From Escherichia coli (lineage in GTDB: Bacteria; Pseudomonadota; Gammaproteobacteria; Enterobacterales; Enterobacteriaceae): a stretch of DNA of 64,000 bases. A model generated the notes under the pieces. It had not been told where the DNA came from. It did not search any database and saw only the letters and a list, made by a program, of their open reading frames with translations. This document shows, piece by piece, positions 42,804-59,421 of this stretch (its first letter is position 1; every line of letters starts with the position of its first letter). The position numbers were made by a program, and so were the translations under genes. The stretch lies in the NCBI RefSeq assembly GCF_003019035.1, contig NZ_CP027447.1; one strand, written 5' to 3'.

Positions 42804-42838
42804 TTCCCGGCAGCATTCTGTTACCGGGGATATTTTTT
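42804..42838 (+). terminator. stem-loop with T-tract downstream of yqhH
   Basis: ttcccggcagcattctgttaccgggga followed by tatttttt. Confidence 0.5.
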
Positions 42839-45056
42839 AACGTCCAACCGCCGCTTTAGGGCGTTTCTTCGCACCAGCATTCTGCAGGCGAGATTGCGTA
42901 GACGACGCTTTTTTTGCCGTAGCAGGCGTCTGACGCTGGGTCGCCATCGGCGTATGTTTAGTCAACGCCGGACGGGTATTGCGGTTCTGGCGACGAGCCT
43001 CACGCATCTCTTCAATGGTTGGCGCAGGCACTAAGCAATCGCGACGGCTGCCAATCAGATGCTTTTTGCCCATCGCTTCCAGCGCCTGGCGGATTAACGG
43101 CCAGTTTGCCGGATCGTGGTAACGCAACAACGCTTTATGCAGACGACGCTGTTTGTCGCCCTTCGGCACGAAGACGTCTTCACTCTTATAACCAATCTTC
43201 GCCAGCGGGTTTTTGCCGGTGTAATACATGGTGGTCGAGTTAGCCAGCGGCGACGGATAGAAGTTCTGCACCTGGTCGAGGCGGAAACGATGCTTTTTCA
43301 GCCACAGCGCCAGATTCACCATATCTTCATCACGCGTACCCGGGTGCGCGGAGATGAAATACGGGATCAGATACTGTTCTTTACCTGCCTGTTTCGAGTA
43401 AGTATCGAACAGCTCTTTAAAGCGGTCATAGCTGCCCATGCCCGGCTTCATCATCTTCGATAACGGCCCTTCTTCGGTATGTTCCGGGGCAATCTTCAGA
43501 TAACCGCCAACGTGATGGGTCGCCAGCTCTTTGATATAGCGCGGATCTTCCACGGCGATGTCATAACGTACGCCGGAAGCGATCAGGATCTTTTTAATGC
43601 CTTTCAGATCACGAGCGCGGCGATAGAGGTTGATCGTCGGTTCGTGGTTAGTGTCCATGTGCGGACAAATATCCGGATAAACGCACGACAAACGACGGCA
43701 GGTTTGCTCAGCGCGTGGCGATTTGCAGCGCAACATATACATGTTGGCAGTTGGCCCACCGAGATCGGAAATTACGCCTGTAAAACCTGGAACGGTGTCG
43801 CGGATCGCTTCGATCTCATTAATGATCGAATCTTCCGAACGGCTCTGAATAATGCGCCCTTCGTGCTCGGTAATAGAACAGAAAGAGCAGCCGCCAAAGC
43901 AGCCACGCATAATGTTGACCGAGAAACGAATCATTTCGTAAGCCGGAATTCGGGCATTACCGTAAGCCGGATGCGGCACGCGCTTGTACGGCAGCGCAAA
44001 GACGCTATCCATCTCTTCGGTAGAAAGCGGAATAGCAGGCGGGTTGATCCATACATAGCGGTCGCCATGTTTTTGCATCAATGCGCGGGCGCAGCCTGGG
44101 TTAGTTTCGTGGTGCAGAATGCGCGAAGCATGGGCGTACAGCACTTTATCGCCCTTCACTTTCTCGAAAGAAGGCAGCAACACGTAGGTTTTTTCCCACG
44201 GTTTCGGGCGTGGTGGCTGCACGGTTACAGCTTTGGCTTCCTGCTTTTTCGGAGCTACCGGTTTGTTATCCGCGCACGGCAAATCTTCGCCATACGGATG
44301 CGGGATTGGGTCGATTTTCCCTGGGGTATCAAGACGGGTGGAATCCACACCGCTCCAGCCTGGCAACGCCTCTTTTACGATAATCGCGGTATTACGCACA
44401 TCGCGGATTTCACTAATCGGCTCGCCCATCGCCAGACGGTGCGCCACTTCCACCAGCGGACGCTCACCGTTACCAAACATCAGCATGTCGGCTTTCGAAT
44501 CCACCAACACGGAACGGCGCACGGTATCGGACCAGTAATCATAATGCGCGGTACGGCGCAGGCTGGCCTCAATACCGCCGAGGATCACCGGCACATCTTT
44601 CCACGCCTCTTTACAACGTTGGGTATAAACCAGTGTGGCGCGATCCGGACGCTTACCCGCGACATTATCTGGCGTGTAGGCATCGTCATGACGTAAACGG
44701 CGATCGGCGGTATAGCGGTTGATCATCGAGTCCATGTTGCCAGCAGTAACGCCGAAAAACAGATTCGGTTTACCCAGACGCATGAAATCGTCTTTACTGC
44801 TCCAGTCTGGCTGAGCGATGATCCCAACGCGAAAGCCCTGCGCTTCCAGCATACGACCGCAAATCGCCATCCCGAAGCTTGGGTGATCGACATACGCGTC
44901 GCCAGTAACCAAAATGATGTCGCAGCTATCCCAGCCAAGTTGATCCATCTCTTCACGTGACATCGGCAAAAACGGTGCCGGTCCAAAACAGGCGGCCCAG
45001 TACTGCGGCCAGGAGAACAGGTCGCGATCCGGTTGGATCAGGGAGATAGAGCTCAT
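42837..45056 (-). CDS. ygiQ: radical SAM-superfamily protein (UPF0313)
   Basis: 739-aa ORF; radical-SAM cysteine motif CFGGCSFC. Confidence 0.9.
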
Positions 45057-45307
45057 TTTGCTTCCAGAAATGATAAAAAAATAATCAAAGGCCGGGGATT
45101 ATACGCTGTATCACGCGCGGAAATGAAGTGATGTTGATGAACGGTGGCGAAATACCCTGGTGAGGTTTTTCACTGCCCGACTTGGGCAAGCACATTTAAG
45201 GCTGGCGGTATCGTGGCAACTGCCGCTACTATTTATGCCGATCAGCAACGTTCAAATCATATTGCACGACGATCGGCTATCCGAGGACACCCACAGTAAG
45301 GCAAGGT

Positions 45308-46057
45308 ATGGAACAGGTTATTACAAAGCGCCGCTATTACGATATTGGTCTACAGATTGAAGAGCTGCTGTATTCAGGCGTATTTAAGGCCGGAGAACGC
45401 TTACCTTCAGAACGTGAACTGAGCGAGCGGTTTAATACCAGCCGAACTACCATTCGTGAAGCCATCATTATGCTGGAACTGAAAGGCGTATTGAATGTGA
45501 AGCAAGGGTCAGGGATTTTCTTTGTCGACTCCACCGATAAGCTCAACCAGAAATCATTAATGCCCTATTCAGAAATTGGCCCGTTTGAACTGTTGCAGGC
45601 GCGTCAGGTGATTGAGAGCAATATTACTGGTTTTGCAGCCAGCCAGATTAGCTTTAACGAGTTACAAGAGTTAAAGAAAATCATTAGCTTGCAGGAAAAC
45701 GCTATCGCTGCGGAAAGTGATAAATTTGAAGACCTGGATCACCGATTTCATAGCATTATTGCCGAAGCGACGCAAAATCGGGTACTCATCAAACAAGCCG
45801 CTGAATTATGGCGGGCAGTGCGCACAGAAAACCCCCGCTGGAAGAAACTTAACTACAAGTACCTGCATGAAAAGCATTTGCGTCTGCAATGGCTGGAAGA
45901 TCACCGGGCTATTTTCCTGGCTCTGCAACAGAAAGATTCAGAGCTCGCCAGGGAAGCGTCCTGGAGACATCTGGAAAACAGCAAAAATGAACTGATCAAA
46001 ATCTTCAAACAAGACGCTTCCATCAGCGATTTTGATGACTTTTTCTTCGCTCGTTAA
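45308..46057 (+). CDS. GntR/FadR-family transcriptional regulator
   Basis: 249-aa ORF; N-terminal winged HTH (ERLPSERELSERFNTSRTTIREA), FCD-type C-terminal domain. Confidence 0.8.
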   Translation: MEQVITKRRYYDIGLQIEELLYSGVFKAGERLPSERELSERFNTSRTTIREAIIMLELKGVLNVKQGSGIFFVDSTDKLNQKSLMPYSEIGPFELLQARQVIESNITGFAASQISFNELQELKKIISLQENAIAAESDKFEDLDHRFHSIIAEATQNRVLIKQAAELWRAVRTENPRWKKLNYKYLHEKHLRLQWLEDHRAIFLALQQKDSELAREASWRHLENSKNELIKIFKQDASISDFDDFFFAR

Positions 46058-46379
46058 CCTTCATTAGTCCAGAGCTGGCGTGAAAAATGACGCTGGCTCT
46101 GCGTTGCACCCTCCACTGGTATACGCTCTCTTCTCAATTGGTCTAATAAATCGATTATCATCAGATATCTTAGATTAGCGGCAATTATCCCAAAAACTGA
46201 CTTCTAAAAAACTTTCCTTTCATTTTATTCATATAACTCATTGATACAGATATAAATAACGCCTTGTTGTTCTGTTTCGTACTTTTACCTTTCTCTGCAA
46301 GCGTGATGCATCTCTCTGTTTTTGGTCTAGTGAATTATGTAAATTGGTATACACACAAGCCACCAGGAGTAAGAGCATA

Positions 46380-47852
46380 ATGTCAGGGAACGAAAGTATC
46401 GATGCCGCCCACTATGATCAGGTAACCACCTGGCCTCGGGGCGGGTTACAGGCAGATATTGTCCATATTGGTTTTGGCGCTTTTCATCGCGGACACCAGG
46501 CTGTCTACACGGATCTCACTAATCAACTTTCGGACACCCGCTGGGGGATCTTTGAGATCAACCTGTTTGGTGATGCTCAACTGATCGAAAACTTAAATGC
46601 GCAAAATGGGCTGTTTTCGGTTGTGGAAACATCTGCATCGCAATCTACCTCACGCCTTGTGCGTTCGGTGGCTGGCGGTATTCATACCCCCAGAGATGGC
46701 ATTGCCGCAGCAATCCATAAACTGGCTGAACCTCAGGTAAAAATCGTTTCATTAACCATCACCGAGAAAGGTTATTGCCTCGATCCGCAAACACGTTCAC
46801 TTGATCTCACCAATGGATTAATCCAACACGATCTACAAAACCCGGATGCGCCTCTGTCAGCTATTGGCGTGATCGTCTGTGCTTTGCAACAACGTAAAGC
46901 GACAGGACTCGCCGCTTTTAGTGTGCTCTCCTGTGACAACTTGCCAGACAATGGGCATCTGACGCGCAATGCCGTTCTCGGTTTTGCCCGACAACTGGAC
47001 CAGCCCCTGGCTCAGTGGATCGAAGAAAATGTCTCATTTCCAGGCACGATGGTAGATCGCATTGTTCCGGCAATGACTGAATCGCAATTCGCCTTACTGG
47101 AAACGAAAACCGGTTATGCCGATCCCTGCGGGATCGTCTGCGAATCATTTCGTCAGTGGGTGATCGAAGATAATTTTGTGCGCGGACGACCACAATGGGA
47201 TAAAGCCGGCGCGATGTTTGTCAGCAATGTTCAGCCTTATGAAGAGATGAAGTTACGCATGTTAAATGGTAGCCATTCATTTCTGGCTTATAACGGCTCG
47301 CTGGCAGGCTATGAGTTTATCTGGCAATGCATGGAAGACGCTAATTTTCGTTCCATTACCCACCAACTGATGATTAATGAACAAGCCCGAACACTTAATC
47401 CAGACTTAAATATCAACATCCAGGAATACGCCGACCTGTTAATTGAACGCTTTAGCAACCGTAACGTTGCACACCGTACCGGGCAAATAGCCATGGACGG
47501 TTCACAAAAGCTTCCCCAGCGTGCACTGACGCCCTGGCTGAAATTACATCAGCAAAAGCAAAACAATGCTGTTCTGTCACTGCTCGTTGCTGGTTGGTTG
47601 CATTATGTCATTGATGCTGTTGAGAAAAGCCAGTCTGTCGCTGATCCAATGAATGACCAATTTCAGGCGCTAATAAAGGAACAACAAGACGCATGGCAAC
47701 AGGCGCTCGCATTACTGCACCTTAGCGCCATATTTGGTGATTTAAGCAACCATCAGCCATTTATAAATGAAATAAAAATCGCCTTTGCGAATATAAAAAA
47801 CAAAGGCATCAAGGCCACCATCAGCCAATTATTATCGGATGAGCAGAAATGA
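46380..47852 (+). CDS. mannitol-dehydrogenase-family oxidoreductase (fructuronate/mannonate-reductase-like)
   Basis: Start moved from TTG at 46344 to ATG at 46380 preceded by aggag RBS (MSGNESIDAAHY); long-chain mannitol DH family features. Confidence 0.75.
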   Translation: MSGNESIDAAHYDQVTTWPRGGLQADIVHIGFGAFHRGHQAVYTDLTNQLSDTRWGIFEINLFGDAQLIENLNAQNGLFSVVETSASQSTSRLVRSVAGGIHTPRDGIAAAIHKLAEPQVKIVSLTITEKGYCLDPQTRSLDLTNGLIQHDLQNPDAPLSAIGVIVCALQQRKATGLAAFSVLSCDNLPDNGHLTRNAVLGFARQLDQPLAQWIEENVSFPGTMVDRIVPAMTESQFALLETKTGYADPCGIVCESFRQWVIEDNFVRGRPQWDKAGAMFVSNVQPYEEMKLRMLNGSHSFLAYNGSLAGYEFIWQCMEDANFRSITHQLMINEQARTLNPDLNINIQEYADLLIERFSNRNVAHRTGQIAMDGSQKLPQRALTPWLKLHQQKQNNAVLSLLVAGWLHYVIDAVEKSQSVADPMNDQFQALIKEQQDAWQQALALLHLSAIFGDLSNHQPFINEIKIAFANIKNKGIKATISQLLSDEQK

Positions 47853-48865
47853 AAACATTAATTTGTCAGCAGCCTGGCGTTATGGAATATGTGGAAAAGG
47901 ATATTCCCACACCAGCAGATAATGAAGTGCTGTTAAAAATCAAAGCTGTGGGTATTTGTGGTACTGATATTCACGCTTTTGCCGGCAGACAGCCTTTTTT
48001 TAGCTACCCACGTGTATTAGGTCATGAAATATGCGCCGAAGCGGTTTCGCGAGGCAGCCAGTGCCAAACAGCACAATCAGGCCAGCGCTATTCCGTCATC
48101 CCATGCATTCCGTGTGGCGAGTGCGCAGCCTGTCGGGAAGAGAAAACGAACTGCTGCGAACGTGTTTCGCTGTATGGCGTGCATCAGGATGGGGGTTTTA
48201 GTGAGTACCTTGCGGTACGTGAAGACAACCTTGTGCCTCTCCCTGACGAGGTCAGCGACAGTGCCGGAGCATTGGTTGAATGTTTCGCCATTGGTGCACA
48301 TGCCGTTCGTCGGGCAGAGATCAAGGCTGAACAAAACGTACTGGTGGTTGGCGCTGGGCCAATCGGTCTGGCTACCGCGGCCATCGCCAGGGCTAAAGGG
48401 GCGCATGTTGTTGTTGCTGATATTGATTGTCAACGTCGCCAGCACGTTGTGGATCATCTGGCAATTAATGTCTTCGACCCAACACAGGAAGGTTTTATTG
48501 CCGCGCTTAGTGAAGTATTTGGCGGCGAACTGGCTTGCGTAGTCCTGGATGCGACGGGAAATAAAGCTTCAATGAGTCATGATGTAAATCTTATTCGTCA
48601 TGGCGGCAAAATTGTTTTCATCGGTTTGTACATTGGTGAACTTGTTATTGACGATCCGACCTTCCATAAAAAAGAGACAACGTTACTCAGCAGCCGCAAT
48701 GCCACACGGGAAGATTTTGCGTTGGTGATTGAACTGATGCGCAGCAATAAAATTCACGAAAATTTAATGAAAAACCAGGCGTTCAATTTCTTTAGTGTTG
48801 GCGAAGATTACCAGCGTAACGTTGTAGAAAATAAAAATATGGTCAAGGGTGTGATCACTTTTTAA
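47849..48865 (+). CDS. Zn-dependent medium-chain alcohol/polyol dehydrogenase
   Basis: 338-aa ORF; catalytic GHE motif, structural-zinc Cys cluster CGECAACREEKTNCC, Rossmann GAGPIG; ATGA overlap with upstream gene. Confidence 0.8.
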   Translation: MKTLICQQPGVMEYVEKDIPTPADNEVLLKIKAVGICGTDIHAFAGRQPFFSYPRVLGHEICAEAVSRGSQCQTAQSGQRYSVIPCIPCGECAACREEKTNCCERVSLYGVHQDGGFSEYLAVREDNLVPLPDEVSDSAGALVECFAIGAHAVRRAEIKAEQNVLVVGAGPIGLATAAIARAKGAHVVVADIDCQRRQHVVDHLAINVFDPTQEGFIAALSEVFGGELACVVLDATGNKASMSHDVNLIRHGGKIVFIGLYIGELVIDDPTFHKKETTLLSSRNATREDFALVIELMRSNKIHENLMKNQAFNFFSVGEDYQRNVVENKNMVKGVITF

Positions 48866-48875
48866 GGGAACAAAT

Positions 48876-49886
48876 ATGACAACTGTTTATGTCAGTGAAG
48901 AAAATTTAAAATCACTGGTGCACCACAAATTACATACCGCCGGGCTGGATACCGACACCACACAACAGGTGACAGATGTTTTAGTACATGCCGATATTAC
49001 AGGTGTGCATTCACATGGTGTTATGCGTGTCGAACATTATTGCACCCGCCTTGCTGCCGGAGGGTTAAATAAAGCCCCGCAGTTTAGCATTGAGCAAATT
49101 TCACCGTCAGTGGCCATTCTCGACTCTGACGACGGAATGGGGCATTCCGCATTAATTAGCGCCACTGAGCACGCTATTAAACTGGCCCAGCAAGAGGGCC
49201 TCGGTTTTGTTAGCGTTAAAAACACGTCTCACTGTGGTGCGTTATCTTATTTTGCAGAGATGATCACCAACAAAGGGTTGGTTGCTATCGTAATGACGCA
49301 AACCGATACCTGTGTGGCTCCCCATGGCGGCGCCGAGCGCTTTTTGGGAACTAACCCCATCGCCTTTGGTTTCCCGGTGGAAAACAGCCATCCGATGATT
49401 GTTGATATGGCGACCAGTGCCACGGCTTTCGGCAAAATACTTCATGCAAAGGAAACCGGAAAACATATTGGTGAAGGGCTGGCGATAGATAAAAACGGTT
49501 ATGGCACCACTGATCCGTATAAGATTGAAAACCTGCTACCTTTCGGCCAACACAAAGGTTCAGGCATTGCACTGGCTATTGATGCACTGACTGGCGTGCT
49601 GATGAATGCGAATTTTGGCAACCATATTGTTCGCATGTATGGTGATTATGACAAGATGCGTAAGCTGGCAAGTTTGGTTATTGCCATCGATCCGAAAAAG
49701 CTCGGCAATCCTGTTTTTGCAAAAACCATGGCGCAAATGGTCACGGAGTTGCATGCCGTTAAACCGGCTCCCGGTATCGAAAAAGTGTTAGCGCCGAACG
49801 ATCCGCAAATGCACTACAAAGAAAAATGCCAACAGGAAGGTATTCCGGTTCCGGCAGGAATATTCCATTATCTGGCAGAGAATTAA
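48876..49886 (+). CDS. Ldh2-family (malate/L-lactate dehydrogenase 2-type) oxidoreductase
   Basis: 336-aa ORF with Ldh2-family features (HSHGVMRVEHY, GTNPIAFG). Confidence 0.75.
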   Translation: MTTVYVSEENLKSLVHHKLHTAGLDTDTTQQVTDVLVHADITGVHSHGVMRVEHYCTRLAAGGLNKAPQFSIEQISPSVAILDSDDGMGHSALISATEHAIKLAQQEGLGFVSVKNTSHCGALSYFAEMITNKGLVAIVMTQTDTCVAPHGGAERFLGTNPIAFGFPVENSHPMIVDMATSATAFGKILHAKETGKHIGEGLAIDKNGYGTTDPYKIENLLPFGQHKGSGIALAIDALTGVLMNANFGNHIVRMYGDYDKMRKLASLVIAIDPKKLGNPVFAKTMAQMVTELHAVKPAPGIEKVLAPNDPQMHYKEKCQQEGIPVPAGIFHYLAEN

Positions 49887-49958
49887 TCACTACTTTTTAT
49901 TATAACGATAGAAAAGCGCTGTATTTATCGTTTCTGTTATATTAACCAGGAGCAAGAT

Positions 49959-50942
49959 ATGAAAGCACTTCGTCCTCTGACGGCATCGCTTATGCTGTTA
50001 ACCAGTTGTTTTTTAGTTTCCAATACCACACTGGCAAAAACAACATTAAAACTCAGTCATAATCAGGATAAAAGCCATGCTGTCCATAAAGCATTAAGCT
50101 ATTTAGCGGATAAAACCAAAGAGTATTCTAATGGTGAATTAGTTATTCGCATTTACCCAAATGCGACATTAGGTAATGAGCGTGAATCACTGGAATTAAT
50201 GAACTCCGGTGCATTACAGATGGTTAAGGTTAATGCTGCATCACTAGAATCATTTGCCCCGGATTACAGCCTTTTCAGTCTGCCGTTCTTATTTCGCGAC
50301 CGTGATCACTATTATCGTGTTCTGCAAAGTGATTTAGGTAAAAAAATACTTAAGTCATCAGAAAGCAAAGGTTTTGTTGGTATTACGTACTATGACGGCG
50401 GTGCGAGAAGTTTTTATTCCAATAAACCGATTACAAAACCTGAAGATTTAGCGGGAATGAAAATCAGGGTTCAACAAAGCCCCAGCGCCATTGCAATGAT
50501 GAAAGCACTCGGTGGTGTCGCTACCCCGATGGCGCAAGGCGAACTCTACACCGCACTTCAGCAAGGTGTGGTTGATGGCGGAGAGAACAATACCGTTGTC
50601 TATTCCGATATGCGTCACGCCGAAGTCGCAAAAGTCTATTCACGTGATGAACACACCATGGTACCTGATGTGTTAATTATCAGCACCGACGTGTTGAATA
50701 AACTTGGTGATAAAGAGCGCACGGCATTATTAAAAGCAGCCGATGAGTCAATGATGCAGATGAAGGACGTCATCTGGCCTGCGGCTGAAAAAGAAGCCTA
50801 CGACAAAATGAAAGGGATGAACGCAACAGTTGTTGATGTTGATAAATCCGCTTTCAAAGAACGCGTCAAACCGTTATACGATGAATTCAAGGCGAAAGAT
50901 GCACAATCCGCCAAAAACCTTGAGCAAGTAGAAAGTATGTAA
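49959..50942 (+). CDS. TRAP transporter substrate-binding protein (DctP family)
   Basis: 327-aa ORF with signal peptide and DctP-type sequence. Confidence 0.8.
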   Translation: MKALRPLTASLMLLTSCFLVSNTTLAKTTLKLSHNQDKSHAVHKALSYLADKTKEYSNGELVIRIYPNATLGNERESLELMNSGALQMVKVNAASLESFAPDYSLFSLPFLFRDRDHYYRVLQSDLGKKILKSSESKGFVGITYYDGGARSFYSNKPITKPEDLAGMKIRVQQSPSAIAMMKALGGVATPMAQGELYTALQQGVVDGGENNTVVYSDMRHAEVAKVYSRDEHTMVPDVLIISTDVLNKLGDKERTALLKAADESMMQMKDVIWPAAEKEAYDKMKGMNATVVDVDKSAFKERVKPLYDEFKAKDAQSAKNLEQVESM

Positions 50943-50983
50943 CCCTAATGGGCAGGTAATTCCTGCCTTTTCATGGAAGACTT

Positions 50984-51466
50984 ATGCGAACACTCACTCA
51001 TATTCTTAATAAGATCCTTGCCGGATGTTGCCGCATTATTCTCGCCATTATGGTGTTCTGCGTAACCTGGCAAGTTATTGCACGTTTTATTTTTAACGCT
51101 CCCAGCACTGTGCTTGATGAGTTCACCCAGATTTTATTTATGTGGATGATTTTACTTGGTGGTGTATATACTGCGGGGTTAAAAAAACATCTGGCCATTG
51201 ATTTGTTGGCTCAAAAACTTCCGGCTGCATCTGTTCTGACGCTTGACTGTTTTATCCAAATTATTATTACGGTCTTTGCGGTTATTTTCATGATCTATGG
51301 CGGGAATATTGTTGTTGAAAAAGCACAACATGTTGGACAAATCTCTCCTGTATTAAAATGGCCGATGGATAAGGTTTATTGGGTTATGCCTGCCAGTGGG
51401 CTTATTCTGGTCTGGTATTCAGTGATGAATATCATCGACAACTATCGCAAATGGAATTCTCATTAA
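50984..51466 (+). CDS. TRAP transporter small permease (DctQ family)
   Basis: 160-aa ORF with four predicted TM helices. Confidence 0.75.
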   Translation: MRTLTHILNKILAGCCRIILAIMVFCVTWQVIARFIFNAPSTVLDEFTQILFMWMILLGGVYTAGLKKHLAIDLLAQKLPAASVLTLDCFIQIIITVFAVIFMIYGGNIVVEKAQHVGQISPVLKWPMDKVYWVMPASGLILVWYSVMNIIDNYRKWNSH

Positions 51467-51476
51467 CGAGGGAAGT

Positions 51477-52781
51477 ATGGACATTGAATATATCTACCCC
51501 GTCTTAATTTTATTTGGCAGTTTTGCCGTCATGCTGGCAATCGGTGTGCCAATTACTTTTGCGATTGGTCTTTCTTCGCTGTTATCTATTATTACTGCCT
51601 TACCACCCGATGCCGCCATTTCTGTGATTTCGCAAAAGATGACTGTGGGGCTGGATGGCTTTACGCTATTAGCCATTCCCTTCTTCGTGTTAGCCGGAAA
51701 CATTATGAATACCGGTGGTATAGCCAGACGACTGGTTAACCTGGCGCAAGCATTAGTTGGGCGTCTTCCTGGCTCACTGGCTCATTGTAATATCCTCGCG
51801 AATACACTGTTTGGTGCGATTTCAGGTTCAGCCGTTGCGTCAGCCGCAGCGGTAGGTGGGATTATGTCACCACTGCAAGAAAAAGAGGGCTATGATCCGG
51901 CGTTCTCTGCGGCGGTTAATATTGCCTCTGCCCCCATTGGCCTGATGATCCCACCGAGCAATGTGTTGATTGTTTATTCCCTCGCCAGTGGCGGGACTTC
52001 TGTCGCTGCGTTGTTCTTAGCTGGATATCTGCCGGGCATCCTCACCGCTGTTGCCTTAATGTTTGTAGCTGCACTTTATGCCCGACGTCACCATTACCCA
52101 GTGGCCGAACGCATCAATTACCGTCAGTTTTTACAGGTATTCCGCGAATCAATTCCTAGCCTGATGCTTATTTTTATCATTATTGGCGGTATTATCGCAG
52201 GGGTATTTACGCCCACAGAAGCATCAGCAATAGCGGTAATTTATAGTTTAGCCCTGGCGATGATTTACCGGGAAATCACCATCAAGAAACTCAATGACAT
52301 CCTGTTAGACTCCGTAGTAACCAGTTCAATTGTTCTGTTGCTGGTAGGCTGCTCGATGGGGATGTCATGGGCCATGACGAATGCTGATGTTCCTGAGTTG
52401 ATCAACGAACTGATTACCCGCGTTTCGGATAACAAATGGGTCATTCTATTTATTATTAATATCATTCTGTTGATCGTCGGTACCTTTATGGATATCACGC
52501 CGGCGATCCTGATATTTACACCTATTTTCCTGCCGATCGCCCAGCATCTGGGGATTGATCCGATTCACTTCGGCATCATTATGGTTTTCAACTTAACCAT
52601 TGGCCTTTGCACACCACCTGTCGGCACCATTCTGTTTGTGGGGTGCAGCATTGGTAAGGTCAGTATCGACAGGGCAATAAAACCATTACTGCCGATGTTT
52701 CTGGCATTGTTTGTAGTAATGGCAATTATTTGTTATTTCCCGCAGCTTAGTCTGATGCTGCCAGGATTATTTTCGACCTGA
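51477..52781 (+). CDS. TRAP transporter large permease (DctM family)
   Basis: 434-aa polytopic ORF. Confidence 0.8.
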   Translation: MDIEYIYPVLILFGSFAVMLAIGVPITFAIGLSSLLSIITALPPDAAISVISQKMTVGLDGFTLLAIPFFVLAGNIMNTGGIARRLVNLAQALVGRLPGSLAHCNILANTLFGAISGSAVASAAAVGGIMSPLQEKEGYDPAFSAAVNIASAPIGLMIPPSNVLIVYSLASGGTSVAALFLAGYLPGILTAVALMFVAALYARRHHYPVAERINYRQFLQVFRESIPSLMLIFIIIGGIIAGVFTPTEASAIAVIYSLALAMIYREITIKKLNDILLDSVVTSSIVLLLVGCSMGMSWAMTNADVPELINELITRVSDNKWVILFIINIILLIVGTFMDITPAILIFTPIFLPIAQHLGIDPIHFGIIMVFNLTIGLCTPPVGTILFVGCSIGKVSIDRAIKPLLPMFLALFVVMAIICYFPQLSLMLPGLFST

Positions 52782-52814
52782 TACACAATGAAGACTGCAT
52801 ACTGAGTAATTTTC

Positions 52815-52840
52815 AATGCCCCACCACTCTGTGGGGCATT
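52815..52840. terminator. stem-loop between convergent TRAP permease gene and ftsP
   Basis: aatgccccac / gtggggcatt 10-bp perfect stem with 6-nt loop. Confidence 0.5.
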
Positions 52841-52851
52841 GAATTGGTCCA

Positions 52852-54264
52852 TTACGGTACCGGATTGACCAACAGTTGCCCAATCGAACCACGGTCCGCC
52901 ATTTCCAGCGTCTGACTGTTGAAGTAGAACGGGAAGTGCGCCCAGGAAGGCTGACCGAAATAAACAAGCAGCTCCACTTGTCCGTCAACCCAAACGGTAT
53001 CTTTCCAGCCTCTGTCTTCCGGGAACGGCATCGCGCCATTCACGTTACGGATCTGGAACATCACGCCTTCAATATGGAACGCTTGCGGCTCGTCCGCGCG
53101 TACCGTCCAGCGTTCCCACGTTCCTTGCTGCGCGGTGACATCAATACGGTTGACGTCCCACAGCTGTCCATTAATCCCCGGGTCATCACCCAGACTGATA
53201 TCGCGACTGCGAATCGGCGAACCAGCCATGATTTCAGTTGGCAGCAGGCGCATCGGAAGACTGTCTGTGACCAGCGGCAGAAGGCCGGTTGGGCGCAGCG
53301 TTAGCACCAGGGTAGAAACCAGAATACTGGATGGCTCAAAGAAGCCGCGAATACGATCAACAATGCTCGCCGCTTCACCACAGGTGATCGACACTTCATC
53401 ACCGTTGCTCATATCCACCAGAATCTCGCGGCGCTCGCCCGGTGCCAGCGAAAGTTGCTTCACCGATACAGGAGCGGGCAGGAATCCCTGATCGCCAGAA
53501 ATCACATGTAACGGGCGACCATCGCTCATCTGTAGTTGATAGCGACGAGAGTTCGACGCGTTCAACAGACGCAAGCGCACCCAGCCACGCGAGACTTCAA
53601 CGTACGGGCTTTGTACACCGTTAACCAGCAGCGTATCGCCAACAAAGCCGCCGCTTCCCGGTTCGTTATATTCCGGCGTACCAAAGTTATCCAGCCGTTT
53701 ATCCTGAATAATGACCGGAAAATCATCCACACCATAATGGTTGGGGATAGGCAGCGATTTGCTGACTTCATCTTCCACCAGCCACATTCCGGCAAGGCCG
53801 TTATAGACCTGCTGAGCCGTGCGGTTGGGAGTATTGGCGTGATACCACAGAGTAGCTGCGTTCTGGCGAATGGGCAGTACGGGTGCCCAGTCAGCGTTTG
53901 GCGACATCATCCGTGCCGGACCGCCCATCAGCGGGCCTGGTACCTGTAGCCCGGCCACCGTCATTGAGACATTTTCTGTCAGGCGGTTGCTGTAAATAAG
54001 CTTAACATCGTCGCCCTTCCAGACGCGGATAGTCGGCCCCAGGTAACGACCATTGATTCCCCAAACCGACGCGCGTGTCCCTGGCGTAAATGACCAGTGC
54101 GCACGTTGTACAGTCATAAACAGCGGTTGCCCACGGCGAGATTCAAGCAGCGGCGGAACGGGTAGCGGTTGCTGTTGCCCGGCTGCGCTGGCCTTCAGGG
54201 GAACAGCGCCTGCACAAAGTGCAATCCCCGATGCCTGAATGAACTGACGCCGACTGAGTGACAT
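52852..54264 (-). CDS. ftsP: cell division protein FtsP (SufI), multicopper-oxidase fold
   Basis: 470-aa ORF with Tat signal MSLSRRQFIQASG. Confidence 0.9.
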   Translation of the reverse strand: MSLSRRQFIQASGIALCAGAVPLKASAAGQQQPLPVPPLLESRRGQPLFMTVQRAHWSFTPGTRASVWGINGRYLGPTIRVWKGDDVKLIYSNRLTENVSMTVAGLQVPGPLMGGPARMMSPNADWAPVLPIRQNAATLWYHANTPNRTAQQVYNGLAGMWLVEDEVSKSLPIPNHYGVDDFPVIIQDKRLDNFGTPEYNEPGSGGFVGDTLLVNGVQSPYVEVSRGWVRLRLLNASNSRRYQLQMSDGRPLHVISGDQGFLPAPVSVKQLSLAPGERREILVDMSNGDEVSITCGEAASIVDRIRGFFEPSSILVSTLVLTLRPTGLLPLVTDSLPMRLLPTEIMAGSPIRSRDISLGDDPGINGQLWDVNRIDVTAQQGTWERWTVRADEPQAFHIEGVMFQIRNVNGAMPFPEDRGWKDTVWVDGQVELLVYFGQPSWAHFPFYFNSQTLEMADRGSIGQLLVNPVP

Positions 54265-59313: not shown

Positions 59314-59421
59314 GGTATTCCTTACCGGAGAAATTATAAGCCCAACAACAATACGCCTGTGGCATTGTTCGCTCAAACTTATCGCGAGTGATTTGGCTCA
59401 CACTCCGGTAAAGATTCCCCA

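Follow-up and report, generated by a model that had tools for sequence, protein, structure and literature searches.

A composite, probable sugar-acid TRAP importer and dehydrogenase operon in the ygiQ-ftsP interval of Escherichia coli

It is already known that STM3169, the solute-binding protein of the Salmonella Typhimurium TRAP transporter STM3169-STM3171, binds D-glucuronate with a Kd of 0.17-0.25 µM, in a test of six compounds only (Herman et al. 2020, PMC7660916). The E. coli locus described here shares with it the ygiQ|ftsP interval, the P-Q-M gene order and a DctP that is 83% identical, whereas the Salmonella genes have no adjacent regulator or dehydrogenases, possess their own 487-bp upstream region and show a native-like GC3 of 0.59-0.62, compared with 0.39-0.49 in the island. 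The L-gulonate cluster of H. influenzae, GulPQM-GulD-UxuB-UxuA (PMC5788505), is alike in having a TRAP importer, a Zn-dependent L-aldonate 5-dehydrogenase, a fructuronate reductase and a UxuR-type regulator, the common logic being C5 inversion via a 5-keto acid; unlike it, the island has a DctP of the hexuronate and not the L-gulonate group, has an extra Ldh2 enzyme, and is without dehydratase, kinase and aldolase.

In E. coli K-12, lgoRTD (yjjMLN) places a GntR/FCD regulator beside a transporter and the dehydrogenase LgoD (56% identical to the island enzyme), but the transporter is of the MFS type, there is no dedicated reductase or Ldh2 enzyme, and this core locus lies elsewhere on the chromosome. 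The 3,6-anhydro-L-galactose loci of agarolytic Vibrio and Agarivorans, together with a rare enterobacterial gyrB-yidB locus, carry an orthologous regulator (63-79%) and dehydrogenase cassette (60-78%) in the same order; they differ by the presence of a cycloisomerase and by MFS or unrelated TRAP transporters, and the marine ones additionally have KDG kinase, KDPG aldolase, aldehyde dehydrogenase and agarases. E. coli rspAB-ydfIJ also combines a Zn dehydrogenase (RspB), a reductase (YdfI) and a transporter, and these two enzymes are the best solved structures for their island counterparts (RspB, 4ILK, for the Zn dehydrogenase; YdfI, 4IM7, 476 bits, for the reductase), yet it has an enolase-superfamily dehydratase, an MFS transporter, no Ldh2 enzyme and a Zn dehydrogenase of low similarity (165 bits).

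Layout, borders and history of the locus

In the window, which is the whole 64-kb stretch of DNA that was analysed, seven intact plus-strand genes form a sugar-acid uptake and conversion operon of about 7.7 kb in the ygiQ|ftsP interval. They encode a FadR/GntR regulator, a mannitol-dehydrogenase-family reductase, a Zn dehydrogenase, an Ldh2 oxidoreductase and DctPQM. The open reading frame coordinates, NCBIfam matches and RefSeq annotation (taken from strain SCU-301, in which this region is identical) agree with the seven genes and family calls of the initial annotation, and its description of a GntR-linked accessory sugar-acid dehydrogenase/TRAP operon stands. The features are as follows.

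42837..45056, minus strand: ygiQ (radical SAM), left core flank (TIGR03904, 883 bits; RefSeq annotation)
45104..45307, plus strand: non-coding left island end containing a degenerate hairpin (about 45176-45198); identity to the K-12-type spacer ends at 45103
45308..46057, plus strand: FadR/GntR-family regulator, UxuR/ExuR-like but distinct (UxuR and ExuR models, below cut-off)
46342..46357, no strand: candidate operator AATTGGTATACACACA, a position weight matrix (PWM) match some 10 nt ahead of the ribosome-binding site of the reductase gene
46380..47852, plus strand (RefSeq ATG; the open reading frame is 46344-47852): long-chain mannitol-dehydrogenase-family reductase, UxuB/YdfI-like
47849..48865, plus strand: Zn-dependent dehydrogenase, LgoD-like (56% identity to YjjN/LgoD)
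48876..49886, plus strand: Ldh2-family (L-2-hydroxy acid / 2-oxo acid) oxidoreductase (AllD models, below cut-off)
49959..50942, plus strand: DctP, TRAP solute-binding protein, STM3169 orthologue (83.2% identity to the Salmonella protein)
50984..51466, plus strand: DctQ, TRAP small membrane subunit (weak YiaM match; RefSeq TRAP small permease)
51477..52781, plus strand: DctM, TRAP large permease (TIGR00786, 513 bits, cut-off 268)
52814..52841, no strand: strong hairpin CAATGCCCCAC-CACTCT-GTGGGGCATTG between the convergent dctM and ftsP
52852..54264, minus strand: ftsP, right core flank (PRK10883, 1004 bits)

The GC content is 0.41-0.48 within the island and 0.52-0.56 in the flanks, and GC3 is 0.39-0.50 compared with 0.58-0.62, the same low GC3 being common to all seven genes; these calculations support the earlier impression, gained by eye, that the island is AT-richer than its surroundings. 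K-12-type genomes are without the island, and ygiQ is directly followed there by ftsP across a 110-bp spacer, as the initial annotation had it. Judged by strict identity, the indel covers about 45104-52850, although some 95 nt at its start (45104-45198, including the degenerate hairpin) still correspond to a diverged stretch of the K-12 spacer, and the degenerate left hairpin aligns with the K-12 hairpin CTCGCCCTCCTCGGGCGAG. On the right, K-12 homology restarts at 52851, right at the ftsP stop codon. The hairpin at 52814..52841 is a probable bidirectional terminator; a 50-nt stretch around it folds at -24.7 kcal/mol, K-12-type strains have a different hairpin at this position, and the two end hairpins are linked only by a resemblance over 13 of 15 nt. 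The ygiQ gene itself is 95.8-96.2% identical to that of K-12-type strains, compared with about 98% for the remaining window.

No tRNA and no long flanking repeats were found at the island, and no integrase or transposase among its open reading frames or in the RefSeq annotation, in line with the unmarked borders noted initially. A mobile genomic island, understood as an integrative element with integrase or transposase, tRNA/att target and flanking direct repeats, was thus rejected as a description. The full island is present in 1201 of the 5426 complete E. coli genomes (about a fifth), CFT073, 536, Nissle 1917, ST131 and E2348/69 among them, and the same seven genes occupy the same site in E. 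albertii, E. whittamii, a divergent Escherichia and Klebsiella spallanzanii. A gap-free alignment of 25.6 kb between the window and CFT073 shows 98.3% identity, both within the island and beyond it. Third-codon-position identity to E. albertii is 73-87% for the island genes and 79% for ygiQ, with a similar pattern in other species. The divergence of the island therefore equals that of its flanks against CFT073, E. albertii, E. whittamii and K. spallanzanii, and the phylogenetic discordance of a mobile island was not seen. In addition, two E. coli genomes, HH45 and HH97, hold decayed remains of the genes for the reductase and the Zn dehydrogenase between K-12-type flanks, which makes a deletion the most likely origin of the K-12 state.

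Taken together, the common site across species, the flank-like divergence and the decayed remnant point to ancient presence with later deletion, and the island is best read as an old Escherichia feature that most E. coli lineages, K-12 among them, have lost by deletion. That it was recently acquired and is specific to pathogenic strains is hardly credible: low GC and presence in phylogroup B2 ExPEC, AIEC and EPEC strains (in part from PMC12928451) would fit, but mobility genes, tRNA and long repeats are lacking, commensal/probiotic SCU-301 and Nissle 1917 are carriers too, and divergence that matches the flanks, both within E. coli (the CFT073 alignment) and at third positions across Escherichia species, contradicts it. 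The horizontal acquisition suggested by the initial annotation thus holds as an ancient event only and not as a gain in this strain or lineage, given the flank-like divergence and the same site in other species. The low GC3 of the Escherichia/Klebsiella version, set against Salmonella TRAP genes whose GC3 is native-like, shows that this version came from outside at some earlier time. The region is already in the literature as GR21, which the initial annotation had not noted.

Transporter and dehydrogenase cassette as two modules

DctP is 83.2% identical, gap-free over 327 aa, to its Salmonella orthologue STM3169, which exceeds the approx. 60% taken as the isofunctional level for TRAP binding-protein clusters (PMC5788505, citing Vetting 2015). 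All seven ligand residues listed in PMC7660916 (N35, Q36, E74, R150, R170, N210, D237) are identical; R170 is the carboxylate-binding arginine, and a signal-like sequence is present at the N-terminus. The protein matches NF037995 (240 bits, cut-off 50) and TIGR00787 (221 bits, cut-off 175), its best solved structures are hexuronate-group TRAP solute-binding proteins, and it scores 233 bits to this group compared with 104 bits to the L-gulonate-binding 4PBQ. Its TRAP membership is borne out by the adjoining DctQ and DctM subunit genes, although DctQ matches YiaM weakly (E = 1e-7); its Salmonella orthologue carries Pfam DctQ. The Salmonella ygiQ-ftsP interval contains dctPQM only, and the next DctP relatives (54-58% identical) lie in Vibrio uxaC-uxuB-uxuA-kdgK-eda clusters. 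From the orthology to STM3169-71, a characterised D-glucuronate-binding system that the initial annotation had missed, high-affinity uptake of D-glucuronate is predicted as the most likely role of dctPQM.

The resemblance of the enzyme set to aldonate or uronate pathways, proposed earlier, is supported by the Zn enzyme and the UxuB/YdfI-like reductase. Over 338 aa the Zn dehydrogenase has 56% identity with YjjN/LgoD, the L-galactonate 5-dehydrogenase of E. coli; this is below the isofunctional rule of thumb of approx. 60%, and the GHE motif and Cys cluster are aligned; the identity of YjjN/LgoD, which has no equivalog model, was confirmed by its yjjL-yjjM-yjjN-opgB context. The reductase scores 509.7 bits to the fructuronate reductase model and 157 bits to tagaturonate reductase, and is 60-64% identical to cassette copies elsewhere. 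It was not accepted as UxuB proper, as the PRK15037 cut-off is 603 and a genuine Vibrio UxuB reaches 701. Similarly, AllD is the best solved structure for the Ldh2 enzyme (73-78% identical to cassette copies elsewhere), but ureidoglycolate dehydrogenase was rejected on PRK15025 (342.5, cut-off 356), TIGR03175 (320, cut-off 496) and neighbours that belong to sugar-acid, not allantoin, metabolism, and we assign it to the Ldh2 family only.

This TRAP transporter is missing from the loci that carry orthologues (60-79% identical) of the regulator and the three dehydrogenases in Salmonella, another E. coli, K. quasipneumoniae, Vibrio agarivorans and Agarivorans, and Marinomonas has the three dehydrogenases with no regulator match nearby. 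Most of these loci adjoin a protein with 672 bits to 3,6-anhydro-L-galactonate cycloisomerase (5XD7), the marine ones also KDG kinase and KDPG aldolase, and the Salmonella locus has cycloisomerase pseudogene fragments. The island is therefore two modules joined, a transporter and a regulator/dehydrogenase cassette, a point absent from the initial annotation. Among 80 loci with DctP homologues, the combination is found only in Escherichia and Klebsiella, where adjacency, order and a short spacer (72-96 bp, no terminator) are kept from E. coli to K. spallanzanii. No cycloisomerase was detected in the 64-kb window by tblastn, so the island is not part of a 3,6-anhydro-L-galactose cluster, and the cycloisomerase locus occurs in one of the 5426 E. 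coli genomes; there is thus no obvious internal source of 2-keto-3-deoxy-L-galactonate (L-KDGal).

The regulator scores 192 bits to the UxuR model (cut-off 442) and 185 bits to ExuR (cut-off 396). Among the cassette regulators, those of Salmonella, another E. coli and K. quasipneumoniae have 78-79% identity with it, and the Vibrio agarivorans and Agarivorans ones 63-65%. A PWM derived from the cassette promoters of other loci (consensus AATTGGTATACCAATT, training sites 14.7-20.3 bits) has its best intergenic match of the window at 46342..46357, where 11.0 bits are below the training range; sites at the equivalent position reach 18.2 bits in Salmonella, 15.8 at the second E. coli locus and 10.4 in K. 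spallanzanii, and five of the ten hits of at least 9 bits in the 64-kb window are within the island. The low score of the site in the window and the likeness of the consensus to the UxuR/ExuR box count against it. The repressor probably binds an operator of the AATTGGT-NN-ACCAATT type immediately before the reductase gene. The PWM found no match in the 72-bp spacer before dctP, and this terminator-free gap suggests that the island is one transcript.

Possible functions of the operon

We lean, by a small degree, towards reading the island as a composite, old sugar-acid operon that joins a D-glucuronate-type TRAP importer to a C5-inverting dehydrogenase cassette and was deleted in most E. coli. 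Against this reading, the reductase and the Ldh2 enzyme fall short of the curated cut-offs for the named families nearest to them, and D-glucuronate can be used without the three dehydrogenases, as the genes for UxaC, UxuB and UxuA lie elsewhere, so that the functional tie between the modules is left unexplained.

A dedicated operon for L-gulonate (with 2-keto-L-gulonate) and D-glucuronate, near to what was first suggested, is an unlikely though serious alternative. The TRAP transporter would import L-gulonate and D-glucuronate, the Ldh2 enzyme would reduce 2-keto-L-gulonate to L-gulonate, the Zn dehydrogenase would yield D-fructuronate and the reductase D-mannonate for UxuA. The preference of the reductase for the fructuronate over the tagaturonate model, its YdfI structure match and the 56% identity to LgoD agree with this, as LgoD is usable to quantify both L-galactonate and L-gulonate, going by a title of Kuivanen and Richard cited in PMC12928451; H. 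influenzae gives a precedent for joining GulPQM, GulD and UxuB (PMC5788505), and the Ldh2-family YiaK acts on keto-L-gulonate according to its NCBIfam name. However, DctP is much nearer to the hexuronate group than to 4PBQ, and it is left unexplained why, in six other contexts, the cassette lies beside cycloisomerase, KDG kinase and KDPG aldolase without UxuA.

That linkage to an L-KDGal-making cycloisomerase is what favours salvage of L-KDGal (a 2-keto-3-deoxy-L-hexonate), which we consider doubtful: L-KDGal or a similar keto-deoxy acid, freed by other gut microbes from agar or pectin, would be imported by the TRAP transporter and converted by the cassette to KDG via 2,5-diketo-3-deoxygluconate. 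A P. atlantica route from L-KDGal through L-DDGal to KDG is known, and what becomes of L-KDGal in Vibrio and E. coli is described in the literature as unresolved. Here the transporter is the difficulty, with an orthologue that binds D-glucuronate, every ligand residue kept, and only 30-33% identity between DctP and the TRAP binding proteins of cycloisomerase loci; moreover, two dehydrogenases would do, with the Ldh2 enzyme left over. It is quite improbable that the modules are functionally unrelated neighbours, an ancestral glucuronate transporter alongside which a dehydrogenase cassette landed. Salmonella, with the transporter alone here and the cassette elsewhere, the restriction of the combination to Escherichia and Klebsiella and the spacer without an operator match speak for it, but the conserved adjacency, order and terminator-free spacer and the low GC3 common to all seven genes speak against it.

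In the favoured composite operon, uronate uptake would be coupled with C5 inversion of L-configured hexonates. The LgoD-like Zn dehydrogenase may act on an L-configured C6 acid by oxidising its C5 hydroxyl, with L-gulonate, L-galactonate and L-KDGal, which have the C4/C5 configuration in common, as candidates; the UxuB-like reductase would then turn the 5-keto acid into the D-epimer (D-mannonate, D-altronate or KDG), and the Ldh2 enzyme may interconvert the 2-oxo and 2-hydroxy forms at C2 of this scaffold. The products would pass to the chromosomal UxuA/UxaA, KdgK and Eda route, so that the operon may feed the KDG pathway of those E. coli that have kept it.

Gene content, composition and regulation

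The region between ygiQ and ftsP is a well-delimited accessory operon of a familiar kind, and its gene set, order and position are as the initial annotation had described them, since ORF calls, NCBIfam models and the RefSeq annotation of an identical region in SCU-301 all agree, the latter placing the start of the reductase gene at ATG 46380.

Table. The operon and the NCBIfam evidence for its genes.
45308-52781, plus strand: seven ORFs, flanked by ygiQ (42837-45056, minus strand) and ftsP (52852-54264, minus strand)
Plus strand: FadR/GntR regulator; nearest models UxuR (192 bits) and ExuR (185 bits), both far under their cut-offs
Plus strand: mannitol-dehydrogenase-family enzyme (the reductase); fructuronate reductase model, 509.7 bits (cut-off 603)
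Plus strand: Zn-dependent dehydrogenase; NCBIfam
Plus strand: Ldh2-family oxidoreductase; AllD models, 342.5 and 320 bits, each under its cut-off
Plus strand: DctP, DctQ and DctM (TRAP transporter); NCBIfam

The named models matched by the Ldh2 enzyme are AllD, sulfolactate dehydrogenase, malate/lactate dehydrogenase and 3-dehydro-L-gulonate 2-dehydrogenase, and an AllD function is rejected on the score cut-offs together with the gene context. The island had been described by eye as AT-richer than its flanks, and this is confirmed by both GC (0.41–0.48 vs. 0.52–0.56 in the flanks) and GC3 (0.39–0.50 vs. 0.58–0.62). As also described, no tRNA, integrase or long flanking repeat was found at the island.

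An operator weight matrix (PWM, consensus AATTGGTATACCAATT) was built from the promoters of the cassette (the regulator and the three dehydrogenase genes) in other genomes; we take its motif to be indistinguishable from the UxuR/ExuR box. A candidate operator at 46342-46357 (11 bits) precedes the reductase ribosome-binding site by about 10 nt; Salmonella, a second E. coli locus and K. quasipneumoniae have stronger sites at the equivalent position, and half of all matches of at least 9 bits in the 64-kb window fall within the island. The Salmonella ygiQ-dctP spacer carries AATTGGTATGCAATTA (locus L083, 9685-9700), which scores 13.2 bits about 300 nt upstream of stm3169 and may serve either UxuR/ExuR or the cassette regulator. 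An operator-like site at 45343 (13.2 bits, conserved in relatives) is not claimed, being regulator coding sequence, and no claim is made for a sigma-70 promoter, because the scan gave fewer matches than in shuffled sequence. No terminator was found in the 72-bp spacer between the Ldh2 gene and dctP, which suggests co-transcription across it.

Distribution, age and probable loss of the island

The whole island is present in 1201 of the 5426 complete E. coli genomes, including CFT073, UPEC 536, Nissle 1917, ST131 and E2348/69 (among the approximately 1200 matches to the island across the E. coli collection, one is on a plasmid-labelled record). In nearly all of the other complete genomes ygiQ and ftsP stand 110 bp apart, and the K-12 order given in the initial annotation, with ygiQ directly followed by ftsP, is correct. 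The region is catalogued as “GR 21, ygiQ..ftsP” in a 2026 paper, being complete in seven of seven compared B2 ExPEC/AIEC strains and treated as uncharacterised sugar metabolism (PMC12928451); the island itself was thus on record before, and a literature search for a functional study of it gave this entry only.

The low GC had been read as a sign of horizontal acquisition, and for the present lineage this reading did not hold up, given the flank-like divergence of the island, its shared site across species and a remnant left in two genomes. E. albertii, E. whittamii, a divergent Escherichia genome and Klebsiella spallanzanii carry the identical seven-gene order at the identical site, and protein searches added K. 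huaxiensis and Pseudocitrobacter cyperus. In every comparison made, the divergence of the island parallels that of the flanks. Against E. albertii, island genes show 88–94% nucleotide identity (73–87% at third codon positions) and ygiQ 92% (79%), the pattern is alike in E. whittamii and the divergent Escherichia, and in K. spallanzanii third positions are saturated (island 41–53%, flanks 50–62%). Amino-acid identity of the island proteins within Escherichia is 93–98%, and the genes are therefore under purifying selection.

The window aligns with CFT073 without gaps over 25.6 kb at 98.3% identity, equal inside and outside the island, and it is about as distant from a K-12-like genome (approximately 98.1%), so that no fewer than two E. 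coli lineages with a deep split between them carry the island, its divergence again being flank-like. As separate observations, ygiQ (43000-45000) is 95.8–96.2% identical to the K-12-like genome, where the remainder of the window reaches about 98%, and this raised divergence directly adjoins the island presence/absence polymorphism; further along, at 59415-59419, the window lacks the mqsR-mqsA toxin-antitoxin pair (approximately 0.93 kb), which lies between ygiS and ygiV in the K-12-like genome and is absent in CFT073 too.

Two of the 5426 genomes, HH45 and HH97, have a 1.5-kb remnant of the island between K-12-type ygiQ and ftsP (in HH45, locus L093, 7858-9560), in which a 3' portion of the reductase gene and a 5' portion of the Zn dehydrogenase gene survive, each with its frame disrupted by frameshift and together 96.3% identical to 47121-48640 of the window. 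HH45 and the K-12-like genome encode one and the same YgiQ protein, and a perfect copy of the K-12 spacer hairpin CTCGCCCTCCTCGGGCGAGTATGAAG stands on either side of the HH45 remnant. The K-12 spacer is identical to the window through 45103 and continues as a diverged, shortened copy of the left end of the island, its hairpin aligning with the degenerate left-end hairpin at 45176-45198. A flanking direct repeat was also considered; the two end hairpins share just 13 of 15 nt, too weak for an att-like repeat.

The simplest account of these comparisons is that the island is older than E. coli and that K-12-type strains probably lost it by deletion. Low GC3 is common to the K. spallanzanii copy (0.34–0.52), in contrast to the native-like Salmonella TRAP genes (0.59–0.62), which indicates that the island came from a foreign source in the far more distant past. 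In some E. coli or metagenome records, fusion or truncation variants were met (clusters P0236, P0125 and P0275), including a 544-aa Ldh2-DctM protein and a 482-aa Zn-dehydrogenase-Ldh2 protein; they suggest that some strains have undergone additional deletions within the island, or else that the assembly or annotation is at fault.

Two modules: cassette and transporter

The reductase, Zn dehydrogenase and Ldh2 genes with their own regulator occur elsewhere as a cassette without the island transporter, with identities to the window proteins of 63–79% (regulator), 60–64% (reductase), 69–73% (Zn dehydrogenase) and 73–78% (Ldh2).

Table. Loci holding the cassette or part of it.
Salmonella: between speA and speB, followed by a YhcH/YiaL-family gene
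Another E. coli (L088) and K. quasipneumoniae (L089): between gyrB and yidB/yidA, together with an MFS transporter of the aldonate type
Vibrio agarivorans and Agarivorans: transcribed divergently from the genes for KDG kinase and KDPG aldolase, agarases adjoining
Marinomonas: followed by an aldehyde dehydrogenase
A Rhodobacteraceae genome: Zn dehydrogenase and Ldh2 pair only, with an unrelated TRAP system, KduI and a kinase

In enterobacterial and marine loci alike, the cassette neighbours an enolase-superfamily protein, 76–88% identical among loci, that scores 672 bits against the 3,6-anhydro-L-galactonate cycloisomerase of Vibrio sp. EJY3 (5XD7). The gyrB-yidB/yidA loci (approximately 5270-12360 in L088 and L089) hold regulator, cycloisomerase orthologue, three-dehydrogenase cassette and MFS transporter. 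The Salmonella speA-speB locus (L085, 6358-6931 and 11734-12690) has cycloisomerase pseudogene fragments and, downstream of the YhcH/YiaL-family gene, a neighbouring pair of short ORFs on the plus strand (190 and 125 aa), of which the former matches alpha/beta-hydrolase families and the latter nothing. No cycloisomerase was found in the window, and the idea of one elsewhere in island-bearing E. coli is rejected, since the cycloisomerase locus occurs in only one of the 5426 complete E. coli genomes, that of the crow isolate RM9088. The Zn dehydrogenase is 56% identical to the L-galactonate 5-dehydrogenase YjjN/LgoD of E. coli, whose identity is confirmed by its yjjL-yjjM-yjjN-opgB context.

The Salmonella ygiQ-ftsP interval holds dctPQM alone (stm3169-71). 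Salmonella DctP has N35, Q36, E74, R150, R170, N210 and D237 at exactly the published positions, and the window DctP aligns with it ungapped at 83.2% identity, with all seven ligand residues identical. Its next relatives (54–58%) come from Vibrio, Serratia and Cedecea, those of Vibrio belonging to canonical uxaC-uxuB-uxuA-kdgK-eda clusters that also encode a UxuR-like regulator. A divergent Escherichia genome, SCPM-O-B-8794, has a second TRAP system on a different contig (L009 8123-10966), arranged Q-M-P, whose binding protein shares 53% identity with the island DctP. Among solved structures, the best matches are TRAP binding proteins, 4N91, 4MHF and 4N15 among them, which are reported to bind glucuronate or galacturonate (PMC7660916). 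The L-gulonate binder 4PBQ scores 104 bits against 233 bits, and L-gulonate specificity of the H. influenzae type is unlikely for DctP, judged by relative similarity to the solved binding proteins. The best prediction for the DctP ligand is D-glucuronate, the ligand of STM3169, whose testing covered six compounds only.

Proposed chemistry and significance

Zn dehydrogenases paired with ketoreductases are known to invert C5, as in GulD/UxuB, LgoD/UxaB and IdnD/IdnO, and from these precedents we attribute such an inversion to the Zn dehydrogenase together with the UxuB-like reductase. By our own stereochemical reasoning, L-gulonate, L-galactonate and 2-keto-3-deoxy-L-galactonate (L-KDGal) would have a common C4/C5 configuration, and passage through a 5-keto acid would turn them into D-mannonate, D-altronate and KDG, respectively. 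The substrates of Ldh2-family enzymes are 2-oxo and L-2-hydroxy acids, and the Ldh2 enzyme would perform C2 redox on the same scaffold.

The cycloisomerase product is L-KDGal, which in P. atlantica is converted via 2,5-diketo-3-deoxy-L-galactonate to KDG; its fate in Vibrio and E. coli is yet to be elucidated, according to a 2024 review. We tentatively propose, with more doubt than confidence, that the cassette is the module turning L-KDGal into KDG in the Vibrio-type 3,6-anhydro-L-galactose pathway. D-glucuronate needs none of the three dehydrogenases, and hence the pairing of the modules has three readings: either the transporter also imports an L-configured acid, or the two modules feed the KDG pathway with related but separate inputs, or transporter and cassette are merely adjacent.

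The listing of the island in the literature and the characterisation of the transporter orthologue, which in Salmonella is required for macrophage survival, are already known; the points added are that the operon appears to be an ancestral locus deleted in K-12-type strains, a composite of two modules, with the cassette associated with the anhydrogalactonate pathway. The cassette-cycloisomerase link supplies a candidate that can be tested for an unassigned step in the breakdown of red-algal sugar and also yields a short substrate list for the E. coli operon. If the cassette does turn L-KDGal into KDG in that pathway, Escherichia would re-use it without the cycloisomerase, and by coupling it to a glucuronate-type TRAP importer B2 and related E. 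coli could scavenge, in the gut or urinary tract, C6 sugar acids of L configuration (L-KDGal, L-gulonate, L-galactonate). The island is among the metabolic loci setting B2 and related E. coli (ExPEC, AIEC, Nissle 1917) apart from K-12-like strains, and its association with virulence reads differently once it is seen as an ancestral trait that was deleted and not as a gain specific to pathogens.
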